A model generated the notes under the pieces. That model saw only the letters and a list, made by a program, of their open reading frames with translations, was not told the DNA's origin and searched no databases. From contig JAZSIR010000001.1 of assembly GCA_045533905.1 (NCBI GenBank), positions 1-64,000 on the forward strand: DNA of 64,000 nucleotides. The letters run 5' to 3'. This document shows, piece by piece, positions 431 through 13,981 of this stretch. This DNA comes from Clostridia bacterium (GTDB taxonomy: Bacteria; Bacillota; Clostridia; UMGS1883; UMGS1540). The stretch's first letter is position 1. Each line of letters opens with the position of its first letter. Made by a program: the position numbers and the translations under genes.

Positions 431-1552
431 ATGAGTAAAGTTGTATTTAAATCGCCGTATGTTTCCAGCGGCAAAGCTGTCGGCGGTGGTTATATAAACT
501 ATATGGCACAGCGAGAGAGAGTTGACAAGAGCATCAACACGAAAAGAGTTGAAATTAATCTGAATTATATTGCGACCAGGCCTCGTGTTGAAAAGGTCGG
601 AGAGCATGGTCTCTTCGGTAGTAAGGACGATGTTAATCTGAACAAAGCAAGGAGTGACATACTAAATCACAAAGGAAAAGTGTGGATGCCTATCGTATCT
701 TTGAGACGTGAAGATGCAGACAGACTTGGATATAATAACGCAGATGCATGGAGAAATTTGATTCGGTCAAAGCAGTTTGAAATTGCAGAAGCGTATAATA
801 TTCCGGCAAAGGATTTGGTTTGGTACGGGGCATATCACGATGAAGGTCACCACCCTCATATACATATGATTGTCTATAACAAGAACACAGGCAGCGAATA
901 TCTTTCCAAAAAAAGTTGTAATGACCTGCGGGTAATGTTTACAAAAACTATTTTCATAGACGAAGTAAAAAAACTCTATGATGAAAAACAAACGCTCCGA
1001 GATAGAATTATTGATGAAGTCAAGGAGAAAGTCAGTGAGTTTAAAGTTGATATTGGCGGAGCAAATGATGAATTTGCCCACGCCTTCAATGAGTTAAAAT
1101 TCTCTCTCGATGGGTACTCCGGCAAGAGAAATTATAAGTTCATTTCTCATGAGCAAAAGGAAAAGGTCGATGCGGTTGTAAAAGTTGTCTGCAAGGATGA
1201 TAACCTGCAAGAGTTGTATCGTCAATGGTGTCAGCTGCAGCTTGCAAATCAAAGATACTATCGCAAGCATCCTGAAAAAAGTTTTGATGCCCTTGAGAAG
1301 AGCAAAAACTTCGAAAAGCGTCTGCAAAATGCTGTGCTTAAATCTGCATTAAAAGATAACAGGCAAGGAAATGTTTACACAAATAAAATTGATGCATCCC
1401 CTGTCTTCGGTGACATCATTTTCAGCCTCTGTAAAATGTTTGAGCAGTCAATACAGAAAGACATTGAGGAAGGCTTCACGAAATCAATTGTCGACTCCAA
1501 GGAAAGAACAAAAGAATATCGACGGGATCATGGCATGGGAATGCATATGTAA
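431..1552 (+). CDS. MobP3/MobL-family relaxase
   Basis: N-terminal YINYMAQRERV and YIATRPRVEK-GEHGLF motifs, IVSLRREDA, HUH motif YHDEGHHPHIH; RBS GAAAGGTGAG before ATG 431. Confidence 0.85.
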   Translation: MSKVVFKSPYVSSGKAVGGGYINYMAQRERVDKSINTKRVEINLNYIATRPRVEKVGEHGLFGSKDDVNLNKARSDILNHKGKVWMPIVSLRREDADRLGYNNADAWRNLIRSKQFEIAEAYNIPAKDLVWYGAYHDEGHHPHIHMIVYNKNTGSEYLSKKSCNDLRVMFTKTIFIDEVKKLYDEKQTLRDRIIDEVKEKVSEFKVDIGGANDEFAHAFNELKFSLDGYSGKRNYKFISHEQKEKVDAVVKVVCKDDNLQELYRQWCQLQLANQRYYRKHPEKSFDALEKSKNFEKRLQNAVLKSALKDNRQGNVYTNKIDASPVFGDIIFSLCKMFEQSIQKDIEEGFTKSIVDSKERTKEYRRDHGMGMHM

Positions 1553-1579
1553 ATCTATAAAAGGAAGGTGAAATTTACT

Positions 1580-1936
1580 ATGAAAAGAGAAAAGATGACA
1601 TTCAATGTGCCGCCTGCGGTACGAACTGAAATCAAAAATTATGTTAAGCTGCTCGGCTTTAAAAGCGAGAGTGAACTCTGCAATAAGGCTATCAATGAGT
1701 ACCTTACCAAGCTGCATTATGAAGCAAACAGTGACAACATAAATAAGATTTTGGTTCAGGCGATGGACTGTACCATAGAGCATCATGTTGATAGAGTCTC
1801 GGACATGCTCTTCAAACTTGCTGTCAGCATCGAGAAACAAAATCTCATTGCCAGCGGTGAGTATGATGATTACTATGAGGAGTACATCGAACAGGTAGCA
1901 ATCGAAAATGTTATGAAAAGACATGGAAGATTGTAA
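1580..1936 (+). CDS. Ribbon-helix-helix-like mobilisation accessory protein
   Basis: KMTFNVP...SESELCNKAINEYL RHH-like N-terminus and LFKLAV motif; directly after relaxase; RBS AAGGAAGGTG. Confidence 0.55.
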   Translation: MKREKMTFNVPPAVRTEIKNYVKLLGFKSESELCNKAINEYLTKLHYEANSDNINKILVQAMDCTIEHHVDRVSDMLFKLAVSIEKQNLIASGEYDDYYEEYIEQVAIENVMKRHGRL

Positions 1937-1940
1937 AAAC

Positions 1941-1974
1941 CTTCGTGGACTTCTTCTCTCTTCTGTGGTATGCT
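1941..1974 (+). promoter_or_regulatory. Element-type promoter TGGACT-17-TATGCT (near-copy at 24323-24356)
   Basis: CTTCGTrGACTT-N6-TCTTCTGTGGTATG occurs twice in the element. Confidence 0.45.
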
Positions 1975-2021
1975 TTGTCTCACTGGAGGTGAAATTATAT
2001 GACAAAGCATACAAATGACTT

Positions 2022-2064
2022 AAGGCGATTGCATTTCGGTTAACGAATGTGCAGTCGCCTTTTG
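2022..2064 (+). terminator. Putative intrinsic terminator
   Basis: AAGGCGATTGCA...TGCAGTCGCCTT stem followed by T run. Confidence 0.5.
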
Positions 2065-2157
2065 AAATTAATAAGCTGAAACATTGACAACAAATTTTCA
2101 AAACAGTATTCGAAAAAAATATTCGGTATATAATATTTGAAAAGGAGTTGTTGAATC

Positions 2158-3003
2158 ATGAATGAAATTACTAAACGCACTATTGATGAGTACAAAAATT
2201 ATTTAGTCGAGGAAGAAAAATGCTCTGTCACTATAGAAAAATATATCCGTGACATAAATACATTCGCAGAATGGTCACACGGCAGAGAAATTACAAAGAC
2301 ACTTGTGCTTGAATACAAAAGCATATTGATAAAGCAATATGCTCCTGCAAGTGTGAATTCGGTTCTCTCATCTCTCAATGGATACTTCAATTACATTGAA
2401 AGATATGACCTCAAGGTAAAGAACTTAAAAGTGCAAAGACAAATCTTCTGCCAGAGTGAAAAGGAACTGACCAAGGCTGAGTATGAAAGACTTCTCAAGG
2501 CTGCAAAGAGTAAAAAGAACGAGCGCCTCTATCTCATCATGCAGACGATATGTGCCACAGGGATTCGTGTAAGTGAATTAAAATATGTGGATGTGAATTC
2601 TGTGATGACAGGACAGGCTCAGGTTAGGTTGAAAGGTAAAATCAGAATGATAATCCTGCCGAAAGAGTTATGCCAACTGCTTAAGAAATATATAAAAGAA
2701 AAGCATATCACTTCGGGAAGTGTATTCGTAACAAGAAAAGGTCAGCCTGTGGATCGACACTCAATATGGAAATCAATGAAACAATTGTGCGAAAGCGCAG
2801 GGGTATCAAAAGAAAAAGTATTTCCACATAACCTCCGCCATCTGTTCGCAAGGACATACTATTCACTGCAAAAGGATATTGTTCGCCTGGCGGATATACT
2901 CGGCCACTCAAGCGTAAATACTACCAGAATCTATACCATCGAAAATGGTTCCACCCACCGCAGACAAATGCAGAGAATGGGACTCGTACGGATGCAAAAT
3001 TAA
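2158..3003 (+). CDS. Tyrosine recombinase (probable DNA invertase)
   Basis: Catalytic set intact: TGIRVSE (R), LKGK (K), HNLRH, LGH, TTRIY; N-terminal SAM-like domain. Confidence 0.92.
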   Translation: MNEITKRTIDEYKNYLVEEEKCSVTIEKYIRDINTFAEWSHGREITKTLVLEYKSILIKQYAPASVNSVLSSLNGYFNYIERYDLKVKNLKVQRQIFCQSEKELTKAEYERLLKAAKSKKNERLYLIMQTICATGIRVSELKYVDVNSVMTGQAQVRLKGKIRMIILPKELCQLLKKYIKEKHITSGSVFVTRKGQPVDRHSIWKSMKQLCESAGVSKEKVFPHNLRHLFARTYYSLQKDIVRLADILGHSSVNTTRIYTIENGSTHRRQMQRMGLVRMQN

Positions 3004-3009
3004 AAAGAC

Positions 3010-3029
3010 CACATAATCAGCATTATGTG
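3010..3029. repeat. Left recombination site of invertible segment
   Basis: CACATAAT-CAGC-ATTATGTG: dyad arms with asymmetric core; exact reverse complement of 3240-3259. Confidence 0.85.
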
Positions 3030-3055
3030 GCAAAATCATTAAAATATTTGAATAA

Positions 3056-3084
3056 ATTATACCACGAAAATACATAAAGGTCAA
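3056..3084 (-). promoter_or_regulatory. Sigma-A promoter inside invertible segment (currently pointing away from downstream genes)
   Basis: Minus strand TTGACC-17bp-TATAAT with TG extended -10 (TGGTATAAT). Confidence 0.75.
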
Positions 3085-3239
3085 TGTTTCAGAGATAAAT
3101 ACATAAAAATCATAAAATTTGCACATAGCAAATAGACCAATGAAAAAATTAAGACTCATTGGTCTGAGGCTCTTTTGAATTCGTGGTAACTGCAATCACC
3201 TTAGAGGGTGCTTTTTTTATTTCAGCTGTCTTAGTTACA

Positions 3240-3259
3240 CACATAATGCTGATTATGTG
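3240..3259. repeat. Right recombination site of invertible segment
   Basis: CACATAAT-GCTG-ATTATGTG, 20/20 inverted match to 3010-3029. Confidence 0.85.
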
Positions 3260-3270
3260 AGAAAGGGGTT

Positions 3271-3804
3271 TTGAAACAGAATATGCCCGATATAGATAAA
3301 GAAAAAACTTGTTGTTTCTTCGGTCACAGAAAGATTGATGAAACAGAAGAATTAAAAAATAGGCTATATGAAATTATTGAGAATTTAATCGTAAATGAAA
3401 AAGTTGATACTTTCCTCTTCGGGGGCAAAAGTCAATTTGATGACTTATGTCATAAAGTAGTTACCGAGATGAAAGAAAAATATCCCCACATAAAGCGTGT
3501 ATATGTGAGGTCAGCATTCCAACATATTCCCGATTGGTATGAAGACAGTCTGCTTCAGCATTATGAAGATACTTACTTCCCGGAGCATATGGAGAACGCA
3601 GGCAGAGCCTCCTATGTGGAACGCAATCAGGAAATGATTAACCACAGTAAGTACTGCGTGGTATATTACGATAAAAATTATCTTCCACCAAGGCGTAAAA
3701 ACAGCAGACGTGATTTATTTGACTACCAACCAAAAAGCGGAACAGCAGTAGCCTATGATTACGCCGTAAAAAAGAAAAAGGAAATTATAAATGTACTGAA
3801 TTAG
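3271..3804 (+). CDS. SLOG-family (YspA/DUF1273-like) protein
   Basis: TCCFFGHR, FLFGG..FD, ERNQEMINHS and SGT..AYDYA motifs. Confidence 0.7.
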   Translation: MKQNMPDIDKEKTCCFFGHRKIDETEELKNRLYEIIENLIVNEKVDTFLFGGKSQFDDLCHKVVTEMKEKYPHIKRVYVRSAFQHIPDWYEDSLLQHYEDTYFPEHMENAGRASYVERNQEMINHSKYCVVYYDKNYLPPRRKNSRRDLFDYQPKSGTAVAYDYAVKKKKEIINVLN

Positions 3805-3815
3805 GAGAAATTGCT

Positions 3816-3992
3816 GTGGCAAATGAAACATTATCAAAAGCAAAAAATGCAAAGAATGATGAGTTTTATATTCAATATGAAGGTATACAGAGAGAAATAA
3901 ATGCTTATTTAGAATATAAGGGCGGAGCAACTGATATTAAAAACTGCCAGATGCTTTGTAAAACCCATAACAGAGCAAAGGGAAATAAATAA
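3816..3992 (+). pseudogene. In-frame deletion fusion: N-terminus of EcoRI-family adenine methyltransferase + C-terminus of HNH endonuclease
   Basis: GTG start with AGGAG RBS; translates MANETLSKAKNAKNDEFYIQYEGIQREINAYLEY|KGGATDIKNCQMLCKTHNRAKGNK*. Confidence 0.75.
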
Positions 3993-4005
3993 CATATGCA
4001 CAAAC

Positions 4006-4045
4006 AGAGCCTTCGGGAATTTTCTCGGAGGCTCGTTCTTTTTTT
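4006..4045 (+). terminator. Intrinsic terminator
   Basis: GAGCCTTCGGGA...TCTCGGAGGCTC stem followed by T tract. Confidence 0.65.
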
Positions 4046-4087
4046 ACCTGAACTAAATCATAAATCGTCAAAATTGACGAGTTCATC

Positions 4088-4116
4088 TTGAAAACTGAAC
4101 CAATATGTGTTATAAT
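4088..4116 (+). promoter_or_regulatory. Sigma-A promoter for HTH/LytTR/kinase operon
   Basis: TTGAAA-17bp-TATAAT with TG extension. Confidence 0.65.
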
Positions 4117-4147
4117 AGAAAGAAAATTTATATTTGGAGGCTTTATT

Positions 4148-4369
4148 ATGCAGGTTAGCTATAAAGGATTATGGGTTAAATGTGCAGAAAATGAAATATC
4201 AAAACATAAGCTGATACAGTTAGCGGAGGTTTCACCTTCTACACTCACAAGACTTAACAAAAATCAAATTGTATCACTTTCAGTTTTGCTTAAATTCTGC
4301 AAAGTGCTTAAATGTGGTATTGGAGATGTAGTAGAAGCTATACCTGCCAGTGATAAACAAAGTAAATGA
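4148..4369 (+). CDS. Cro/C1-type (XRE) HTH regulator
   Basis: VSYKGLW...VSPSTLTRLNKNQIVSLSVLLKFCKVLKCGIGDVVE pattern; GGAGG RBS. Confidence 0.8.
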   Translation: MQVSYKGLWVKCAENEISKHKLIQLAEVSPSTLTRLNKNQIVSLSVLLKFCKVLKCGIGDVVEAIPASDKQSK

Positions 4370-4389
4370 GTTTGAAAGAAGGTGGTATA

Positions 4390-5109
4390 ATGTTCAGAAT
4401 TGCCCTGTGCGATGACGAGCAAAAAATACTCGATGAAGTATTGCAATATATAAACAAGTATGCAGAAAGTAAAAATATCCAATCGCTTGAAGTATTCCCA
4501 TTCGATTCAGCAAGTTCTCTCAAGAACGCATTGGATGACGAGAAATCCTTTGACATCTTTGTCCTCGATGTTTACATCGGCAAAGAAATGGGAACGGCAC
4601 TTGCAAAGAATATCCGTGAAAGGGGAATTGAGAGTCCGATTATATTTTTAACAACCTCTGTCGAACATGCTCCGCAAGGATATGAAACAGGAACGCTCCG
4701 TTATCTTATAAAACCGCTTGAGCCTGAAAAGTTTTATGAAGCGATAGATGCAGCTTGCTTACAGGCAGAAAAATTACAGAGCAAACTTATCAGGTTCAAA
4801 ACCGAAAATGGCATAGAGAGCATCAACGCAAACAATATTATGTATTCGGAAGCACACGACCATTACCAATACATAAAGCTTGATAACGGTCAGACAATTA
4901 AAGTCAGAACGACAGTTTCGGAGCTTTATGCTTTACTTGCAAAGAATGACGGCTTTTTCCGTTTGGGAAGTGCATACATTATCAATCTGCGTAACATAAA
5001 GAATCTGACATCATCTGCGATTTTGCTTTATGATAACACTACGATACCGATACCAAGAGGGAAACACGCTGAACTGAAAAAAGTCTTTTGGAACTTTCAA
5101 TGTGAATGA
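4390..5109 (+). CDS. LytTR-family response regulator
   Basis: Receiver IALCDDE, FVLDV, IIFLT, YLIKP; LytTR domain FFRLGSAYIINL. Confidence 0.9.
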   Translation: MFRIALCDDEQKILDEVLQYINKYAESKNIQSLEVFPFDSASSLKNALDDEKSFDIFVLDVYIGKEMGTALAKNIRERGIESPIIFLTTSVEHAPQGYETGTLRYLIKPLEPEKFYEAIDAACLQAEKLQSKLIRFKTENGIESINANNIMYSEAHDHYQYIKLDNGQTIKVRTTVSELYALLAKNDGFFRLGSAYIINLRNIKNLTSSAILLYDNTTIPIPRGKHAELKKVFWNFQCE

Positions 5110-5127
5110 TAGGAGGATTAACTGAAT

Positions 5128-6384
5128 ATGACCGGAACAATTATTGAATTTATACTCTTATTGGTAGCCCACGCTGCTGCTGGTATCTTTTCCTCCACTC
5201 TCAAATACAGTAAAAAAACCACATATATCATTTGGGGCACCTGGGTTGTGCTTCAAACAGCACTTCTGTTCTATACGGAATTTGTGCTGACAAATTGGGC
5301 GCTGCAGTTTTTCGTTGGATTTGTACTTTCTCTTGTCGGTCAGTATGTGATATTCTTTGTAACGACAAAAGGAAAGCTTGCACAAAGAATTTTTACCATG
5401 TTGACCTATTCGATCTTCTTCTGTATTGTTATGTCCTTGGTTACGATGGTCAATGGCTCTTTTGGTGAGCTGCACTGGATACTTATCGCACTCATTCAAG
5501 CGGCTTTGCTTTTCGCTATTGTGTTCTATTTTCTTCGCTATGTATGCCCTTTGTGCCGTACTGCTGCAAGGAATATAACAACGGGTTGGGCACCGCTGAT
5601 TTTTGTGAACATCGTCTTTTTGATTACCGTAATTTTGTCCTCGGTATTTCCGGTTAGACTGACAACCTTTAATGATCCTGCGGTTATCACATTTGTTTTT
5701 CTTAGCGTATCTATCTTGTCTGTGTATCCGGTTATTTTTTCAAACATCAACAGCCTGTCCGAAGCGGCAATGAAGAAAGCTGTAGAAACACAAAACAAGC
5801 TGCTTATGACACAGATTGAAGCGGAAAACACACAACTTGCGGCAGACAGCCATGCAAAGCATGACAGACGTCACCACAATCTCATTATGTTGGAATATGC
5901 CAACAACAATGATTTTGAAAGCGTAAAGGATTACTTAAAGACTCTTGTGGAAATTGATGATAAAGCAACAGGTGAAGTGCGGTACTGTGAGAACAGGACG
6001 ATTAACACCATTATAACTGTTTATGAAAGACGTGCGAAAGAAAGCGGAATCTTAGTAAAAGTTGCTGCGGAGAGCAGCCGTGAACTTACCGTTCTTCCGC
6101 AGGACCTTGTGGTTGTCATTGCCAACCTTTTTGAAAATGCAATCAACGCCACTCTGAAGCTAAAGAGCAGAGATAAGTTTATAGATATTCGTATTAAAGA
6201 AAGCTCCAAACGCCTCGTAATAAAGGTTGAAAACCCTTGCAAAGCAAACCTTACCTTTGATGAGTCGTGCTTTGGTGTTGGTATTCGCTCGGTAATTGCC
6301 ACCACAACCAAGTACGAAGGTATGTATGATTTCACCGCCGAGGATGGAATTTTCTCTGCAAAAATCATCTTGAATTTAAAATAA
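5128..6384 (+). CDS. Membrane sensor histidine kinase (GHKL, AgrC/VirS-like)
   Basis: About 7 TM segments, HDRRHH H-box, ANLFENAINA N-box, GVGIRSV G-box. Confidence 0.88.
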   Translation: MTGTIIEFILLLVAHAAAGIFSSTLKYSKKTTYIIWGTWVVLQTALLFYTEFVLTNWALQFFVGFVLSLVGQYVIFFVTTKGKLAQRIFTMLTYSIFFCIVMSLVTMVNGSFGELHWILIALIQAALLFAIVFYFLRYVCPLCRTAARNITTGWAPLIFVNIVFLITVILSSVFPVRLTTFNDPAVITFVFLSVSILSVYPVIFSNINSLSEAAMKKAVETQNKLLMTQIEAENTQLAADSHAKHDRRHHNLIMLEYANNNDFESVKDYLKTLVEIDDKATGEVRYCENRTINTIITVYERRAKESGILVKVAAESSRELTVLPQDLVVVIANLFENAINATLKLKSRDKFIDIRIKESSKRLVIKVENPCKANLTFDESCFGVGIRSVIATTTKYEGMYDFTAEDGIFSAKIILNLK

Positions 6385-6391
6385 AACTGCG

Positions 6392-6424
6392 ATCTACGAC
6401 AAAAAACATACAATCTACGACAAA
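6392..6424 (+). promoter_or_regulatory. LytTR-type direct-repeat binding site
   Basis: ATCTACGACAAA at 6392 and 6413 (21-bp period) upstream of TACAAT -10 at 6451. Confidence 0.7.
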
Positions 6425-6448
6425 CTCCCCATTTCGGGGAGTTTTTTT
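6422..6448 (+). terminator. Intrinsic terminator after kinase
   Basis: AAACTCCCC-ATTTC-GGGGAGTTT followed by T run. Confidence 0.7.
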
Positions 6449-6520
6449 GTTACAATTTATATAAGTATTTTTATTCTGTTAAAAAAACTATGTGAGCATT
6501 TGTGCAAGGGAGGCATAATA

Positions 6521-6781
6521 GTGAACGATAAAAAATATGACGAAAACGGTTATCTTATCATATCCGAAATGGATACTTGTCCTTTATGGGAAAAAGATAC
6601 TGTCCCGAGCATTTACCGTTGTACGCAAGATTGTTTTTATTGCCGTTTTGCAGACTTTCGCACGGAGGAAACTATAACGAGTGCGAAGGAAATACCGCGA
6701 GGCGAAAAACTGTATAGTATCTGCGGCAACGAGAAAAATCGAATAAAGAAATCCGGAAAGGAGCTTAAAAATGAAGATTAA
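6521..6781 (+). CDS. Small Cys-rich hypothetical protein
   Basis: GTG with GGAGG RBS; C-x13-CxxxCxxC...C; overlaps the next gene start. Confidence 0.6.
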   Translation: MNDKKYDENGYLIISEMDTCPLWEKDTVPSIYRCTQDCFYCRFADFRTEETITSAKEIPRGEKLYSICGNEKNRIKKSGKELKNED

Positions 6782-10825: not shown

Positions 10826-12397
10826 TTGGAACAGTATAATTTTTCAAACAGCAATATTGACCTTGCCTGTGAGGATGTTGGCGTTTTTCTGACATCGGTC
10901 GGAGTGGAAAAACGCGAAGTTTTGCGAAACAAACTCACCCTTGAGGAAATACTCCTTGAATACCAAGCAAAGTTTGGTGAAGAAGCGAACTTTAAGGTAA
11001 GATGCGTAAACCGCTTTATGACCATCAAGGTTGAGTTAATTGTTTCGGGACGGGTTTACAATCCGCTTGAAAAGAACGAGGAAGAAAACATCATACATGG
11101 AATTTTGGCAGGTATCGGTCTTGCCCCCTCATACGGATACAGAAACGGAAAGAATTATATCATTTTCACTCCCAAGAAAAAACCGTTGTCAAGCACGGTT
11201 AAAATGGGTGTGGCGATTGGACTTTCGCTCATTTGCGGTTTTTTCCTTAATCTTCTGCCCGATTCAGTTAGAGCAGGTGCAAGCAAATATGTACTTTCGC
11301 CTGTGACCGATGCGTTTATGGGATTGATTTCGGCTGTATCGATTCCGCTGATTTTCTTGTCTGTCCTTGGTAGCATCTGCTCTATGGGCAACATGGAAAC
11401 TCTCGGCAAAATTGGAAAAAAGACCATTAAAACTATTCTCCTGTATTTGACGGCGTTCAGTATACTTATGACAGCACTTGGAAGCTTGTTCTTTCACGTA
11501 CAGTGGGGTGGCGGAGGAGCATCAGGTTTCTCACAGGTTTTCGATTTGATTTATAACATCATTCCATCGAATATGTTTGAACCTTTTATAACGGGAAATA
11601 CTCTGCAGCTTATCTTCATTTCCATTATAGTTGGACTTGCAATGCTTGTCCTTTCGACAAGAGTGAACGGTGTTTTCAAACTTGTCGAACAGTTGGGCGC
11701 GATTGTGCAAACAATTATGTCAGGACTTTCATCTATGCTGCCGATTTTGATTTTTGTACTCTTTACGGGAATGATATCCGGCGGAGAGTTCGGAACTCTG
11801 CTTGATTCTTGGAAGATTATTGCAGTTTTCCTGTTGCTCGTTATGGTTTACTATGCAACAACTGTTTTGTACATTGCATTTAATAAAAAAATTTCGCCGG
11901 CTTTGCTATTAAAAAAGACATGGAAGACGCTTATTATTGCTCTTACAACTGCATCTTCTGCTGCGGCATTCCAAAAAAATATTCGCGATTCAAACAAAAA
12001 GTTTGGTATTGACAAACGTCTCGCGGAATTTGGGGCATCCTTGGGACAAGTGTTGTTCAGCCCTGCTGATGTTGCTATTCTCATTGCAATGGAGGTTGGG
12101 TTTGCGGAAATGTATGGCATTGCGATCACTCCGCAGTTTTTAATCATTGCGTTGATCACGAACCTACTTTTGTCATTTTCCATTCCTCCCGTACCCGGAG
12201 GCTCTGTGATGGGATACACTATTGCATTCACACAGCTTGGTATTCCTTTGGAGGTTATGGGTGTTGTTCTTGCCTTGGATGCGATCATTGATTTTCCGGC
12301 AACAGCGTGCAACATTTCGGGATGGCAGCTTACAATGATTGAGGTTGCTGACTCGCTCGATATGCTCGATAAAGAAACACTTTGCAAAAAGAGATGA
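10826..12397 (+). CDS. DAACS (dicarboxylate/amino acid:cation symporter)-family protein with N-terminal RsbW-like domain, copy 1
   Basis: PLIF.S, IIPSN.F, TASSAAA, PPVPGG, D.P.TACN.SG motifs; TTG start with GAGGTG RBS. Confidence 0.85.
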   Translation: MEQYNFSNSNIDLACEDVGVFLTSVGVEKREVLRNKLTLEEILLEYQAKFGEEANFKVRCVNRFMTIKVELIVSGRVYNPLEKNEEENIIHGILAGIGLAPSYGYRNGKNYIIFTPKKKPLSSTVKMGVAIGLSLICGFFLNLLPDSVRAGASKYVLSPVTDAFMGLISAVSIPLIFLSVLGSICSMGNMETLGKIGKKTIKTILLYLTAFSILMTALGSLFFHVQWGGGGASGFSQVFDLIYNIIPSNMFEPFITGNTLQLIFISIIVGLAMLVLSTRVNGVFKLVEQLGAIVQTIMSGLSSMLPILIFVLFTGMISGGEFGTLLDSWKIIAVFLLLVMVYYATTVLYIAFNKKISPALLLKKTWKTLIIALTTASSAAAFQKNIRDSNKKFGIDKRLAEFGASLGQVLFSPADVAILIAMEVGFAEMYGIAITPQFLIIALITNLLLSFSIPPVPGGSVMGYTIAFTQLGIPLEVMGVVLALDAIIDFPATACNISGWQLTMIEVADSLDMLDKETLCKKR

Positions 12398-12406
12398 GGT
12401 GGTTAA

Positions 12407-13981
12407 TTGGAACAGTATAATTTTTCAAACAGCAATATTGACCTTGCCTGTGAAGAAGTCGGTGAGTTTCTTTCCAAAGTCGGTGTAGAACGACGCGAGG
12501 CTCTCCGAACAAAGCTCACATTTGAGGAAGTATTGCTTGAATACCAATCCAAGTTCGGAGAGGAAGCCACCTTCAAGGTGAGACTTCTGAAACGCTTGTC
12601 CTCTATAAAGGTCGAGATCATCGTAGAAGGAGAATCCTACAACGCTCTTGTCAAAAACAGCGACGAGGGTGACGTGATACAAGGTCTGCTTGCAGGTATC
12701 GGTCTTGCTCCTACTTGGAATTACAAGAACGGTAAAAATTACATCGTATTTATACCAAAGAAAAAACCGCTGTCCGGCACGGCCAAAATGGTCGGTGCAA
12801 TCGGACTTGCGGTGATTTGCGGAATTATCTTAAATCTCTTGCCAGACGGAATCAGAGCAGGCGCAAACGATTATGTGCTAACACCCGTAACGAATGCGTT
12901 TGTGGGACTTATCTCAGCAGTATCAGGGCCGCTGATCTTCCTATCGGTTCTCGGCAGTATCTGCTCCATGGGCAATATGGAAACCCTCGGCAAGATCGGA
13001 AGTAAGACGATTAAGGTTATCCTTCTTTATATGACGGTAATCGCAGTATTGATGACCGCATTCGGCTGCCTGTTTTATCACATTGAAATGGGTGGCGGAG
13101 GGACATCGAGCTTCTCGCAGATTCTCGATTTGATCTATGACATCATTCCGTCAAATCTGTTTGAACCCTTTGTAACCGGAAATGCTTTGCAGCTGATCTT
13201 CATTTCCATCATGGTCGGACTTGCAATGCTTGTCCTATCGTCGAGAGTCAGTGGCGTGTTCAAGCTCGTGGAACAGCTCAGCTCCATCGTGCAAACGATT
13301 ATGTCGGGGCTGTCCTCAATGCTTCCGATTCTGATATTTGTTCTCTTTACGGGAATGATTTCAAGCGGTAACCTTGGTGCAATTCTCGATTCTTGGAAGA
13401 TGATATTAGTCATCGTGCTAATGATTGTAGTTTACTACGTACTGAATCTTCTGCGAATCTCCCTTATGAAAAAGATACCGCCGGCTTTGCTGATGAAGAA
13501 AGCGTGGCAGACACTTCTCATTGCACTTACCACCGCATCCTCGGCTGCCGCGTTCGGTACGAACACCCGTGATGCAAACAAAAAGCTTGGTATTGACAAA
13601 AAGCTTGTTGAGTTCGCAACTCCCATCGGTCAGGTATTGTTTATGCCCGGATATGTCGCCATGCTTTTTTGTATGGAAATGGGCTTTGCGGAATCCTACG
13701 GTCTTCCGATTACTCTACCGTGGATATTTATCGCTCTTATCACAAATCTTTTGTTATCATTTGCAGTCCCGCCCGTGCCCGGTGGTGCAATGATGGGATT
13801 TACGATTGCTTTTACACAACTCGGCATTCCTATGGAGGTTATGGGTATTGCGTTGGCGGTGAACGCTATCATTGATTTCCCCTGTACAGCCTGCAATGTT
13901 TCAGGATGGCAGCTTACTCTTATTGATGTTGCTGACTCACTTAATATGTTGGATAAAGAATCATTACATAAAAATAATTAA
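12407..13981 (+). CDS. DAACS-family protein with N-terminal RsbW-like domain, copy 2
   Basis: Tandem paralogue of 10826-12397 with identical first ~47 nt. Confidence 0.85.
   Translation: MEQYNFSNSNIDLACEEVGEFLSKVGVERREALRTKLTFEEVLLEYQSKFGEEATFKVRLLKRLSSIKVEIIVEGESYNALVKNSDEGDVIQGLLAGIGLAPTWNYKNGKNYIVFIPKKKPLSGTAKMVGAIGLAVICGIILNLLPDGIRAGANDYVLTPVTNAFVGLISAVSGPLIFLSVLGSICSMGNMETLGKIGSKTIKVILLYMTVIAVLMTAFGCLFYHIEMGGGGTSSFSQILDLIYDIIPSNLFEPFVTGNALQLIFISIMVGLAMLVLSSRVSGVFKLVEQLSSIVQTIMSGLSSMLPILIFVLFTGMISSGNLGAILDSWKMILVIVLMIVVYYVLNLLRISLMKKIPPALLMKKAWQTLLIALTTASSAAAFGTNTRDANKKLGIDKKLVEFATPIGQVLFMPGYVAMLFCMEMGFAESYGLPITLPWIFIALITNLLLSFAVPPVPGGAMMGFTIAFTQLGIPMEVMGIALAVNAIIDFPCTACNVSGWQLTLIDVADSLNMLDKESLHKNN

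Follow-up and report, generated by a model that had tools for sequence, protein, structure and literature searches.

A predicted invertible-promoter cassette with a SLOG cargo in gut Clostridia, found only in the OFF orientation within its branch

Introduction

The closest described counterpart of the locus reported here comes from the hCom2 survey (PMC11892184; preprint 10.1101/2024.06.01.596983), whose accessible sections describe an inverton group, 139, with 32 of its 33 members in Clostridia, a tie to tyrosine recombinase invertase group 35, read-level flipping, and two examples that measure 231 and 241 bp from start to start. In the fimS switch of E. coli, with FimB/FimE, the invertible piece carries a promoter and, as here, sits immediately 3' of the gene for a tyrosine recombinase, and the accessible text of PMC5386303 offers a parallel for fimE, in that the orientation of the switch sets the 3' end of the recombinase mRNA. 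The RecV switches of C. difficile (cwpV and flagellar) likewise represent clostridial inversion by a tyrosine recombinase, and the descriptions available for cwpV include a terminator that acts in OFF. With the Xer/dif systems (XerC/D, XerS, XerH), the locus shares a Xer-like enzyme and a dyad site with a 6-bp centre, and the right arm of its site has ATTATGT in common with the difH consensus as given in the available part of PMC2731167. Its cargo is most similar to B. subtilis YpsA (2nx2), being above the cut-off of the Pfam YpsA profile and finding its best fold match there.

Here, we analyse a stretch of 64,000 nucleotides (the window) with which contig C11 begins in a genome of 1.57 Mb. 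A preliminary description, made from the letters, had proposed a phase-variation switch: a promoter inverted by the tyrosine recombinase beside it, captured in OFF and serving a SLOG gene. The anatomy of an invertible promoter, the OFF state and the SLOG target are supported, and relatives occur in both orientations, while the phase variation itself has to be qualified, as every copy in the window's own branch was OFF. We read this branch, with a probability of roughly 0.7, as a functional but strongly OFF-biased switch.

Results

Layout of the cassette

The cassette comprises the following features, in the coordinates of the window.

2158 to 3003, forward strand: gene for a tyrosine recombinase of 281 aa, a predicted invertase with Pfam Phage_integrase and SAM-like domains
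3010 to 3029, forward strand: left recombination site, with dyad arms and a 6-bp centre at 3017-3022; identity of 0.997 across 30 segments
3056 to 3084, reverse strand: putative sigma-70-type promoter with extended -10 (TTGACC-17-TATAAT with TG, 11 of 12 matches), pointing into the recombinase gene (OFF)
3134 to 3165, no strand: family-wide palindrome (arms of 10 bp separated by 12 bp) that lies 49 bp upstream of the -35 and is likely a protein-binding site
3196 to 3218, forward strand: intrinsic-terminator-like hairpin with T tract, typical of the window branch and weakened in the window copy
3240 to 3259, reverse strand: right recombination site, the exact reverse complement of the left; identity of 0.975 across 30 segments
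3262 to 3268, forward strand: RBS-like purine run of the SLOG gene, from sequence and alignment
3283 to 3804, forward strand: gene for a YpsA-like SLOG protein of 173 aa, the predicted target of the ON promoter (Pfam YpsA, 35.9 bits with a cut-off of 27.7)

The two sites are inverted and exact reverse complements of each other, the left one starting 6 nt past the recombinase stop, just as the preliminary description had it. Their 20-nt arms are 100% complementary and 210 nt lie between them; the 250 bp that had been placed between the sites is the span with both sites counted. A dyad with an asymmetric core also stands, but the centre is 6 bp rather than 4 bp long, its outer positions varying too. 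Across the 64 kb, the site pattern has two exact matches and one with three mismatches, compared to 0.33 matches expected at up to three mismatches, and none of 100 shuffles of the window gives three. The whole genome contains just three perfect inverted repeats of at least 18 bp with a gap of 60-1000 bp, including the window pair, and the remaining two stem from one palindrome repeated on contig C15. The cassette is present in this genome in one copy, and a site with one mismatch at C11:84970, which lies within a coding region and has no partner site, was set aside as a chance match. Mean pairwise identity over 30 distinct segments is 0.975-0.997 at the sites, compared to 0.58-0.84 in the adjoining spacers.

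The neighbouring gene is an intact tyrosine recombinase, as proposed: it has the Phage_integrase domain, its catalytic residues R137, K159/K161, H224, R227, H250 and Y259 are kept in all 32 intact relatives, and its dN/dS is 0.067 at a dS of 0.66. Its best NCBIfam matches are XerA, XerD and XerC, each below the respective cut-off (138.1 of 220, 131.8 of 330 and 113.8 of 335 bits), as is XerS (64.1 of 267 bits), and it also falls under the cut-offs of the FimB/FimE-type invertase profiles PRK09870 and PRK09871 (41.5 against 221 and 29 against 222 bits). The region upstream of the gene, at 1960-2157, has a conserved ribosome-binding site with the start of a short open reading frame, and a conserved imperfect hairpin at 2006-2077. 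A TTGACA in the same region has its matching -10 intact in locus L019, but in most copies a stretch that looks duplicated pushes the -10 out of place; this upstream arrangement may limit expression of the recombinase.

A leftward, near-consensus promoter antisense to the recombinase gene was likewise borne out, with a mean pairwise identity over 30 distinct segments of 0.985 for the -10 plus TG and 0.945 for the -35. As promoter-like matches in 1500-4500 are not in excess (11 compared to 11.7 by chance), the weight of the call rests on this conservation. In the captured orientation the promoter does point away from the SLOG gene, which makes it OFF; in the other, as far as motif and conservation tell, it is placed to drive that gene.

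The 10-bp inverted repeat at 3134-3165 proved real (folding z of -4.3), with arms that are invariant in 30 of 30 segments. Among 33 cassettes of the family, 31 have as their best palindrome one with the same or compensated outer bases and a span of 30-40 bp, located 47-51 bp (7 cassettes), 56-62 bp (23) or 69 bp (1) upstream of the -35. Such one-turn steps suggest that a protein is bound at the palindrome on one face of the helix. The palindrome folds as RNA on both strands, but we favour a DNA site over an RNA-only role because its outer bases and span are fixed and its two distance classes lie one turn apart. The T-rich hairpin that had been noted closer to the right site is present as well, although weak in the window copy (-4.8 kcal/mol, z of 0.07), where a single change weakens it, and stronger in relatives.

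Rules of the cassette family

As judged from sequence comparison, the window cassette belongs to a large family of recombinase-plus-invertible-promoter cassettes in gut Clostridia. Like the window, with its two inverted sites and matching asymmetric centres, 93 of 94 distinct cassettes have 6-bp centres that are exact reverse complements, with 19 different centres among them, a count in which partners were accepted at up to two mismatches and many were found by the exact site pattern. Within the window branch, centres have changed in concert in L042, in L196/L218/L243 (copies of 73% identity) and in L233, and single genomes hold several site pairs with different centres.

The distances from site to site form a ladder of 219, 230, 240, 250, 262, 272 and 283 bp. 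For 33 centre-and-spacing lineages, a set that excludes L088 with its three sites, the best period is 10.55 bp with an R of 0.71, which none of 5000 jittered sets reaches, a significance that is overstated as the lineages are related; without the 227-231 class, R is 0.68 in 23 lineages. A record of Monoglobus pectinilyticus, checked afterwards, has 278 bp and is off the ladder, and a second record checked for spacing has no site.

Elsewhere in the family, a sister clade (L034, L220, L232, L234, L236, L245, L251, L200 and L088) has a TetR-like regulator behind the switch, and several of its copies carry a third site 33-39 bp past the second. Another sister cassette (L193, 9095-17076, in G036) has the window's exact site and stands ON before an operon whose products, judged by eye, look like subunits of an F0F1 ATP synthase; phase variation of such an enzyme, if true, would be unusual.

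Relatives invert and the window branch is found OFF

Related cassettes invert. Among 106 metagenome stretches with the 18-bp site, five contigs carry a single type of cassette whose enzyme shares about 53% identity with that of the window; their 18-bp sites and flanks are the same, two are ON and three OFF, and the interiors are 97-99% identical as reverse complements. Between L223 and L246, the recombinase end is 99.7% and the downstream part 100% identical while the interior is 99.6% identical in reverse, and L209 and L210 differ in orientation in the same way at 85-91%. L167, whose enzyme is 65% identical, carries the exact site of the window together with a homologous interior that is ON, facing the downstream gene.

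In a quick maximum-likelihood tree of 69 full-length enzymes, the window and 28 others form one clade (SH-aLRT of 97), which is marked by SLOG cargo of three kinds. This branch is OFF in all 30 genome loci that have both sites (of 49 loci) and in all eight of its metagenome contigs, which come from the same 106 metagenome stretches. Counted by distinct interiors, 42 of 42 are OFF, the window included, compared to 20 OFF and 12 ON among 32 sisters. These sisters are the remaining rows of the 56-row clade that also holds the branch, together with five partial rows, excluding lineages at about 50% identity and with orientation read from the stronger promoter motif; the Fisher P value of 1e-5 for this comparison treats as independent what are in part kin.

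A single orientation in homologues was part of what the preliminary description had named as speaking against it, and for the branch this is what the assemblies give, as the exact ON-junction pattern has no match in metagenome contig assemblies either. No strand-change joint was seen among 15/20 joints listed in four Logan contig sets (4 of the 24 listed runs, with short contigs in which many strains are mixed), and searches with the segment in 14, 151, 5, 18 and 25 genomes returned only OFF or broken copies. The site pattern occurs in three stretches of viral contigs, none with the recombinase, and the palindrome pattern in no viral contig. The contig of L001 ends at the last base of the inner arm of the left site, the predicted orientation fork, which is a hint only because the rest of its segment was not found in its genome. 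A second hint of activity is the joint of L012 to host DNA through half a site, for which no partner piece was found either. Other candidates were dropped: a Logan joint that skips the 210-bp interior, with a side of 21 bases and an undefined middle; contigs that start beside the right site, which are better explained by multiple copies per genome; and L003/L008, both of which end at the same base.

The switch could also be an ordinary two-state one whose ON copies are common in nature yet missing from consensus assemblies because sampling or assembly is biased. Assemblies show the majority state only, and several contigs do break at or near sites, but the sisters, in the same genomes and the same kinds of assembly, are ON in 12 of 32, and some of the breaks are two copies in one genome (L003/L008). 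We consider this account very improbable.

The 42 OFF copies and the missing ON junctions could also mean that the switch has been domesticated and locked, with the enzyme binding its sites (for example in self-repression), the strong promoter acting as an antisense silencer, and SLOG owing its expression to read-through or to a weak promoter that overlaps with the right site. There is a -10-like hexamer in the arm of the right site, and free-standing SLOG homologues use forward promoters; however, no good -35 precedes the hexamer, the best forward promoter score in the segment is 7.5 compared to 12.5, and a terminator-strength hairpin stands just upstream, ahead of the right site, in 38 of the 42 branch copies. 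A hairpin of such strength is found in 6 of 32 sisters, and the branch has gained it as an internal terminator. Binding alone, moreover, would keep neither the 6-bp centres matched through concerted changes nor all catalytic residues in 32 of 32 relatives, and we regard a locked switch as unlikely.

The SLOG gene and its downstream neighbours

The start of the SLOG gene had been placed at 3271, but the TTG found there is not kept in frame in relatives, and the ATG at 3283 is therefore most likely the start. The protein has both the Pfam YpsA profile and the SLOG fold, its model (pLDDT of 59) matching YpsA 2nx2 best (E value 1.4e-3). It differs from YpsA proper in its 16% identity in the structural match, in an NCBIfam equivalog score of 23.8 compared to 165 bits and in having no gpsB among its neighbours. 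A PDB sequence search with the protein returned no matches, and PADLOC reports nothing for the window SLOG and a weak ShosA match for SLOG-B. The dN/dS of the gene is 0.069 at a dS of 1.04 (21 intact copies), and conservation points to purifying selection on this gene as well as on the recombinase, the sites and the promoter. Among the 30 best SLOG homologue loci, 23 have no switch and carry a forward promoter-like site of their own.

From the accessible text of PMC6459960, overproduction of YpsA stops division in B. subtilis, and viral YpsA-like SLOGs have been proposed, in the available part of PMC9503650, to degrade ADP-ribose immune signals. By analogy, both are leads only for the function of the cargo.

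Two further features follow the SLOG gene.

3816 to 3992, forward strand: fused remnant of the start of an EcoRI-type methyltransferase and the end of an HNH nuclease (deleted restriction-modification pair)
4007 to 4034, forward strand: strong terminator-like hairpin, the predicted end of the ON transcript

Behind the right site, 38 loci hold SLOG-A (29), SLOG-B (6), other cargo (2) or a contig end (1), and homology among copies of the element stops at the SLOG stop. The methyltransferase/HNH remnant of the window has 58 codons; an intact SLOG-methyltransferase-HNH run is found in G351 (L247, 1445-4286) and an HNH tail lies behind SLOG in L092, so that in some copies a restriction-modification pair may formerly have been under the control of the switch. 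On contig C15 of G000 (97569-98907), three copies of a perfect palindrome of 36 bp enclose another SLOG homologue, of 54% identity, together with a small HTH gene, in a cassette-like stretch inserted behind histidine genes.

The carrier element

Upstream of the recombinase lie two genes of the element that carries the cassette.

434 to 1552, forward strand: MobP3/MobL relaxase gene (NCBIfam MobP3, 239 bits with a cut-off of 150; Pfam MobL)
1580 to 1936, forward strand: gene for a small DNA-binding protein, likely a relaxase accessory (PHROG DNA-binding protein, E value 2e-5; no Pfam family)

The small DNA-binding protein gene comes after the relaxase in relatives too, and in eight extended loci the block runs on leftwards with HTH_17 and HTH_36/DnaD-like genes, families assigned on equivalents from the first loci. 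Related recombinases occur in 49 genome loci, mostly at 89-98% identity (lower values being broken copies), in records labelled with many gut Clostridia genera and in two bins labelled as other phyla, which may be binning errors. The exact site is in none of eight genomes of the host family and in 10 of 401 genomes of the class. Given the relaxase upstream, the spread over many genera, its absence from those eight genomes and the homology that ends at the SLOG stop, the cassette is the end module of a patchily distributed, likely mobilisable element.

Enzyme and sites might then serve the element itself, in integration, multimer resolution or cargo exchange, with the promoter segment as baggage. 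It fits this idea that the cassette ends a relaxase-carrying element of many unrelated hosts, that the cargo behind the right site varies and that, by eye, no other integrase adjoins seven of the eight extended loci; however, the left ends of all eight lack a copy of the site, and the cargo types share bases past the right site, so that swaps do not map to the crossover. Broken copies are common (L012, L036, L039, L046, L049 and L177) and comprise a joint at half a site, a copy whose entire segment is gone through the site arms, and deletions at short homologies that took out the promoter or most of the recombinase. L012, joined through a half-matching site to foreign DNA, that of its host, and L036, which lacks the segment through its site arms, could be taken as traces of such activity, but no second half of the site turned up in the genome of L012, and a deletion at 8 bp of microhomology in a decayed copy can account for L036. 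Moreover, tyrosine recombinases acting on an inverted pair of sites yield inversion and not excision, and the sites here are inverted. We hold a role in mobility to be distinctly improbable.

The left junction of the element adjoins tRNA-like 3' ends in L202, L203 and L205, the last of which also has a 548-aa open reading frame that by eye resembles a large serine recombinase. Farther right in the window, an HTH / LytTR / GHKL block (4055-6743) shares 98% identity with its counterpart in a different genus (G328 C24), pointing to a separate recent transfer. At 10826-13981, a large gene for an amino-acid-binding ABC transporter is followed by two membrane proteins in tandem, paralogues of 523/524 aa with 73% identity at the DNA level.

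Discussion

In a working but OFF-biased switch, the 281-aa recombinase would invert the promoter-bearing piece between the mirror-image sites and set the predicted strong promoter 69 nt before the SLOG ATG. The enzyme would pair the sites across a short DNA loop, as suggested by spacings that come in whole helical turns, and exchange strands at the 6-bp centre, for which the centres must match. In OFF, the promoter would fire antisense into the recombinase gene and damp the enzyme, while the terminator particular to the branch would keep read-through from the recombinase gene out of SLOG. In ON, the antisense transcription would be gone, the enzyme would rise and the piece would be flipped back. 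As the branch is likely OFF nearly all the time, expression of SLOG would be confined to rare cells or to brief pulses. The palindrome at 3134-3165 would likely be bound by a dimeric protein, either an activator or a recombination helper.

The antisense arrangement alone cannot explain the OFF bias because the sisters share it and are nonetheless partly ON. Nor is SLOG expression simply intolerable, since most of the best homologue loci are switchless and have forward promoter-like sites, which weakens the idea that SLOG is too toxic to express; switch kinetics and the cost of the cargo would both be candidate causes. The lack of any ON copy of the branch and the weak terminator of the window count against the OFF-biased working switch.

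On a more speculative and rather doubtful reading, a mobilisable element of gut Clostridia would carry a one-way-biased switch that keeps a SLOG counter-defence or growth-arrest gene silent (in some copies with a restriction-modification pair) and fires it in few cells. SLOG would have been recruited repeatedly, in three lineages of the branch, the 6-bp centres would act as addresses by which several switches in a single genome stay independent of one another, and the phased palindrome would be the site of a helper protein. If the switch does fire only in rare cells, it would amount to bet-hedging by a mobile element and offer a handle on the function of stand-alone SLOG proteins. Matched centres, helical spacing and a phased palindrome make the mechanism directly testable, and they point to the family as a source of small invertases, possibly orthogonal to one another, for genetic tools in Gram-positive bacteria.

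Among known systems, fimS differs in several respects: the window enzyme is far under the invertase cut-offs and has an N-terminal SAM-like domain, its sites are dyads with a 6-bp centre, its cargo is a cytoplasmic SLOG protein rather than fimbriae, and its carrier is mobilisable. Unlike in Xer/dif, the enzyme is below all Xer cut-offs, the perfect arms are only 7 bp long, and two inverted sites 230 bp apart surround a promoter on a mobile element in place of a single terminus site. The RecV pieces are promoterless and flipped by a distant enzyme, whereas the window piece has a promoter and its own adjacent enzyme.

Judged by host, recombinase adjacency and size, the window family is probably group 139 with its recombinase group 35, as far as the accessible text of the survey describes them: both have Clostridia hosts, similar sizes and a tyrosine recombinase close by (within 5 kb) that is not driven by the switch (non-regulatable orientation), and the example spacings of 231 and 241 bp fall on the family's ladder at 230 and 240. 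This identity may bear on all novelty of the family. Neither a mobile element nor SLOG cargo, nor an internal terminator, a palindrome or helical phasing, is brought up for the group in the sections of PMC11892184 available to us, and the window branch, unlike the examples given there, was never seen ON. In literature searches that were mostly at title level and left subscription journals largely uncovered, we found no paper on a member that controls a SLOG gene or is borne by a mobile element, or on the palindrome or spacing; PMC11602134 and 10.64898/2026.10.01.755998 have nothing on the window cassette family.

The switch itself is ordinary, as recombinase-linked invertible promoters are known and the family, probably catalogued already, is a frequent one in gut Clostridia. 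Less ordinary are the place of this branch on a mobile element, its target, a nucleotide-binding SLOG protein instead of a surface structure, and an OFF state that persists while all parts stay under selection. Set beside the systems described so far, the window branch is a modest variant: mobile, with a SLOG cargo, insulated by a terminator and never seen ON.
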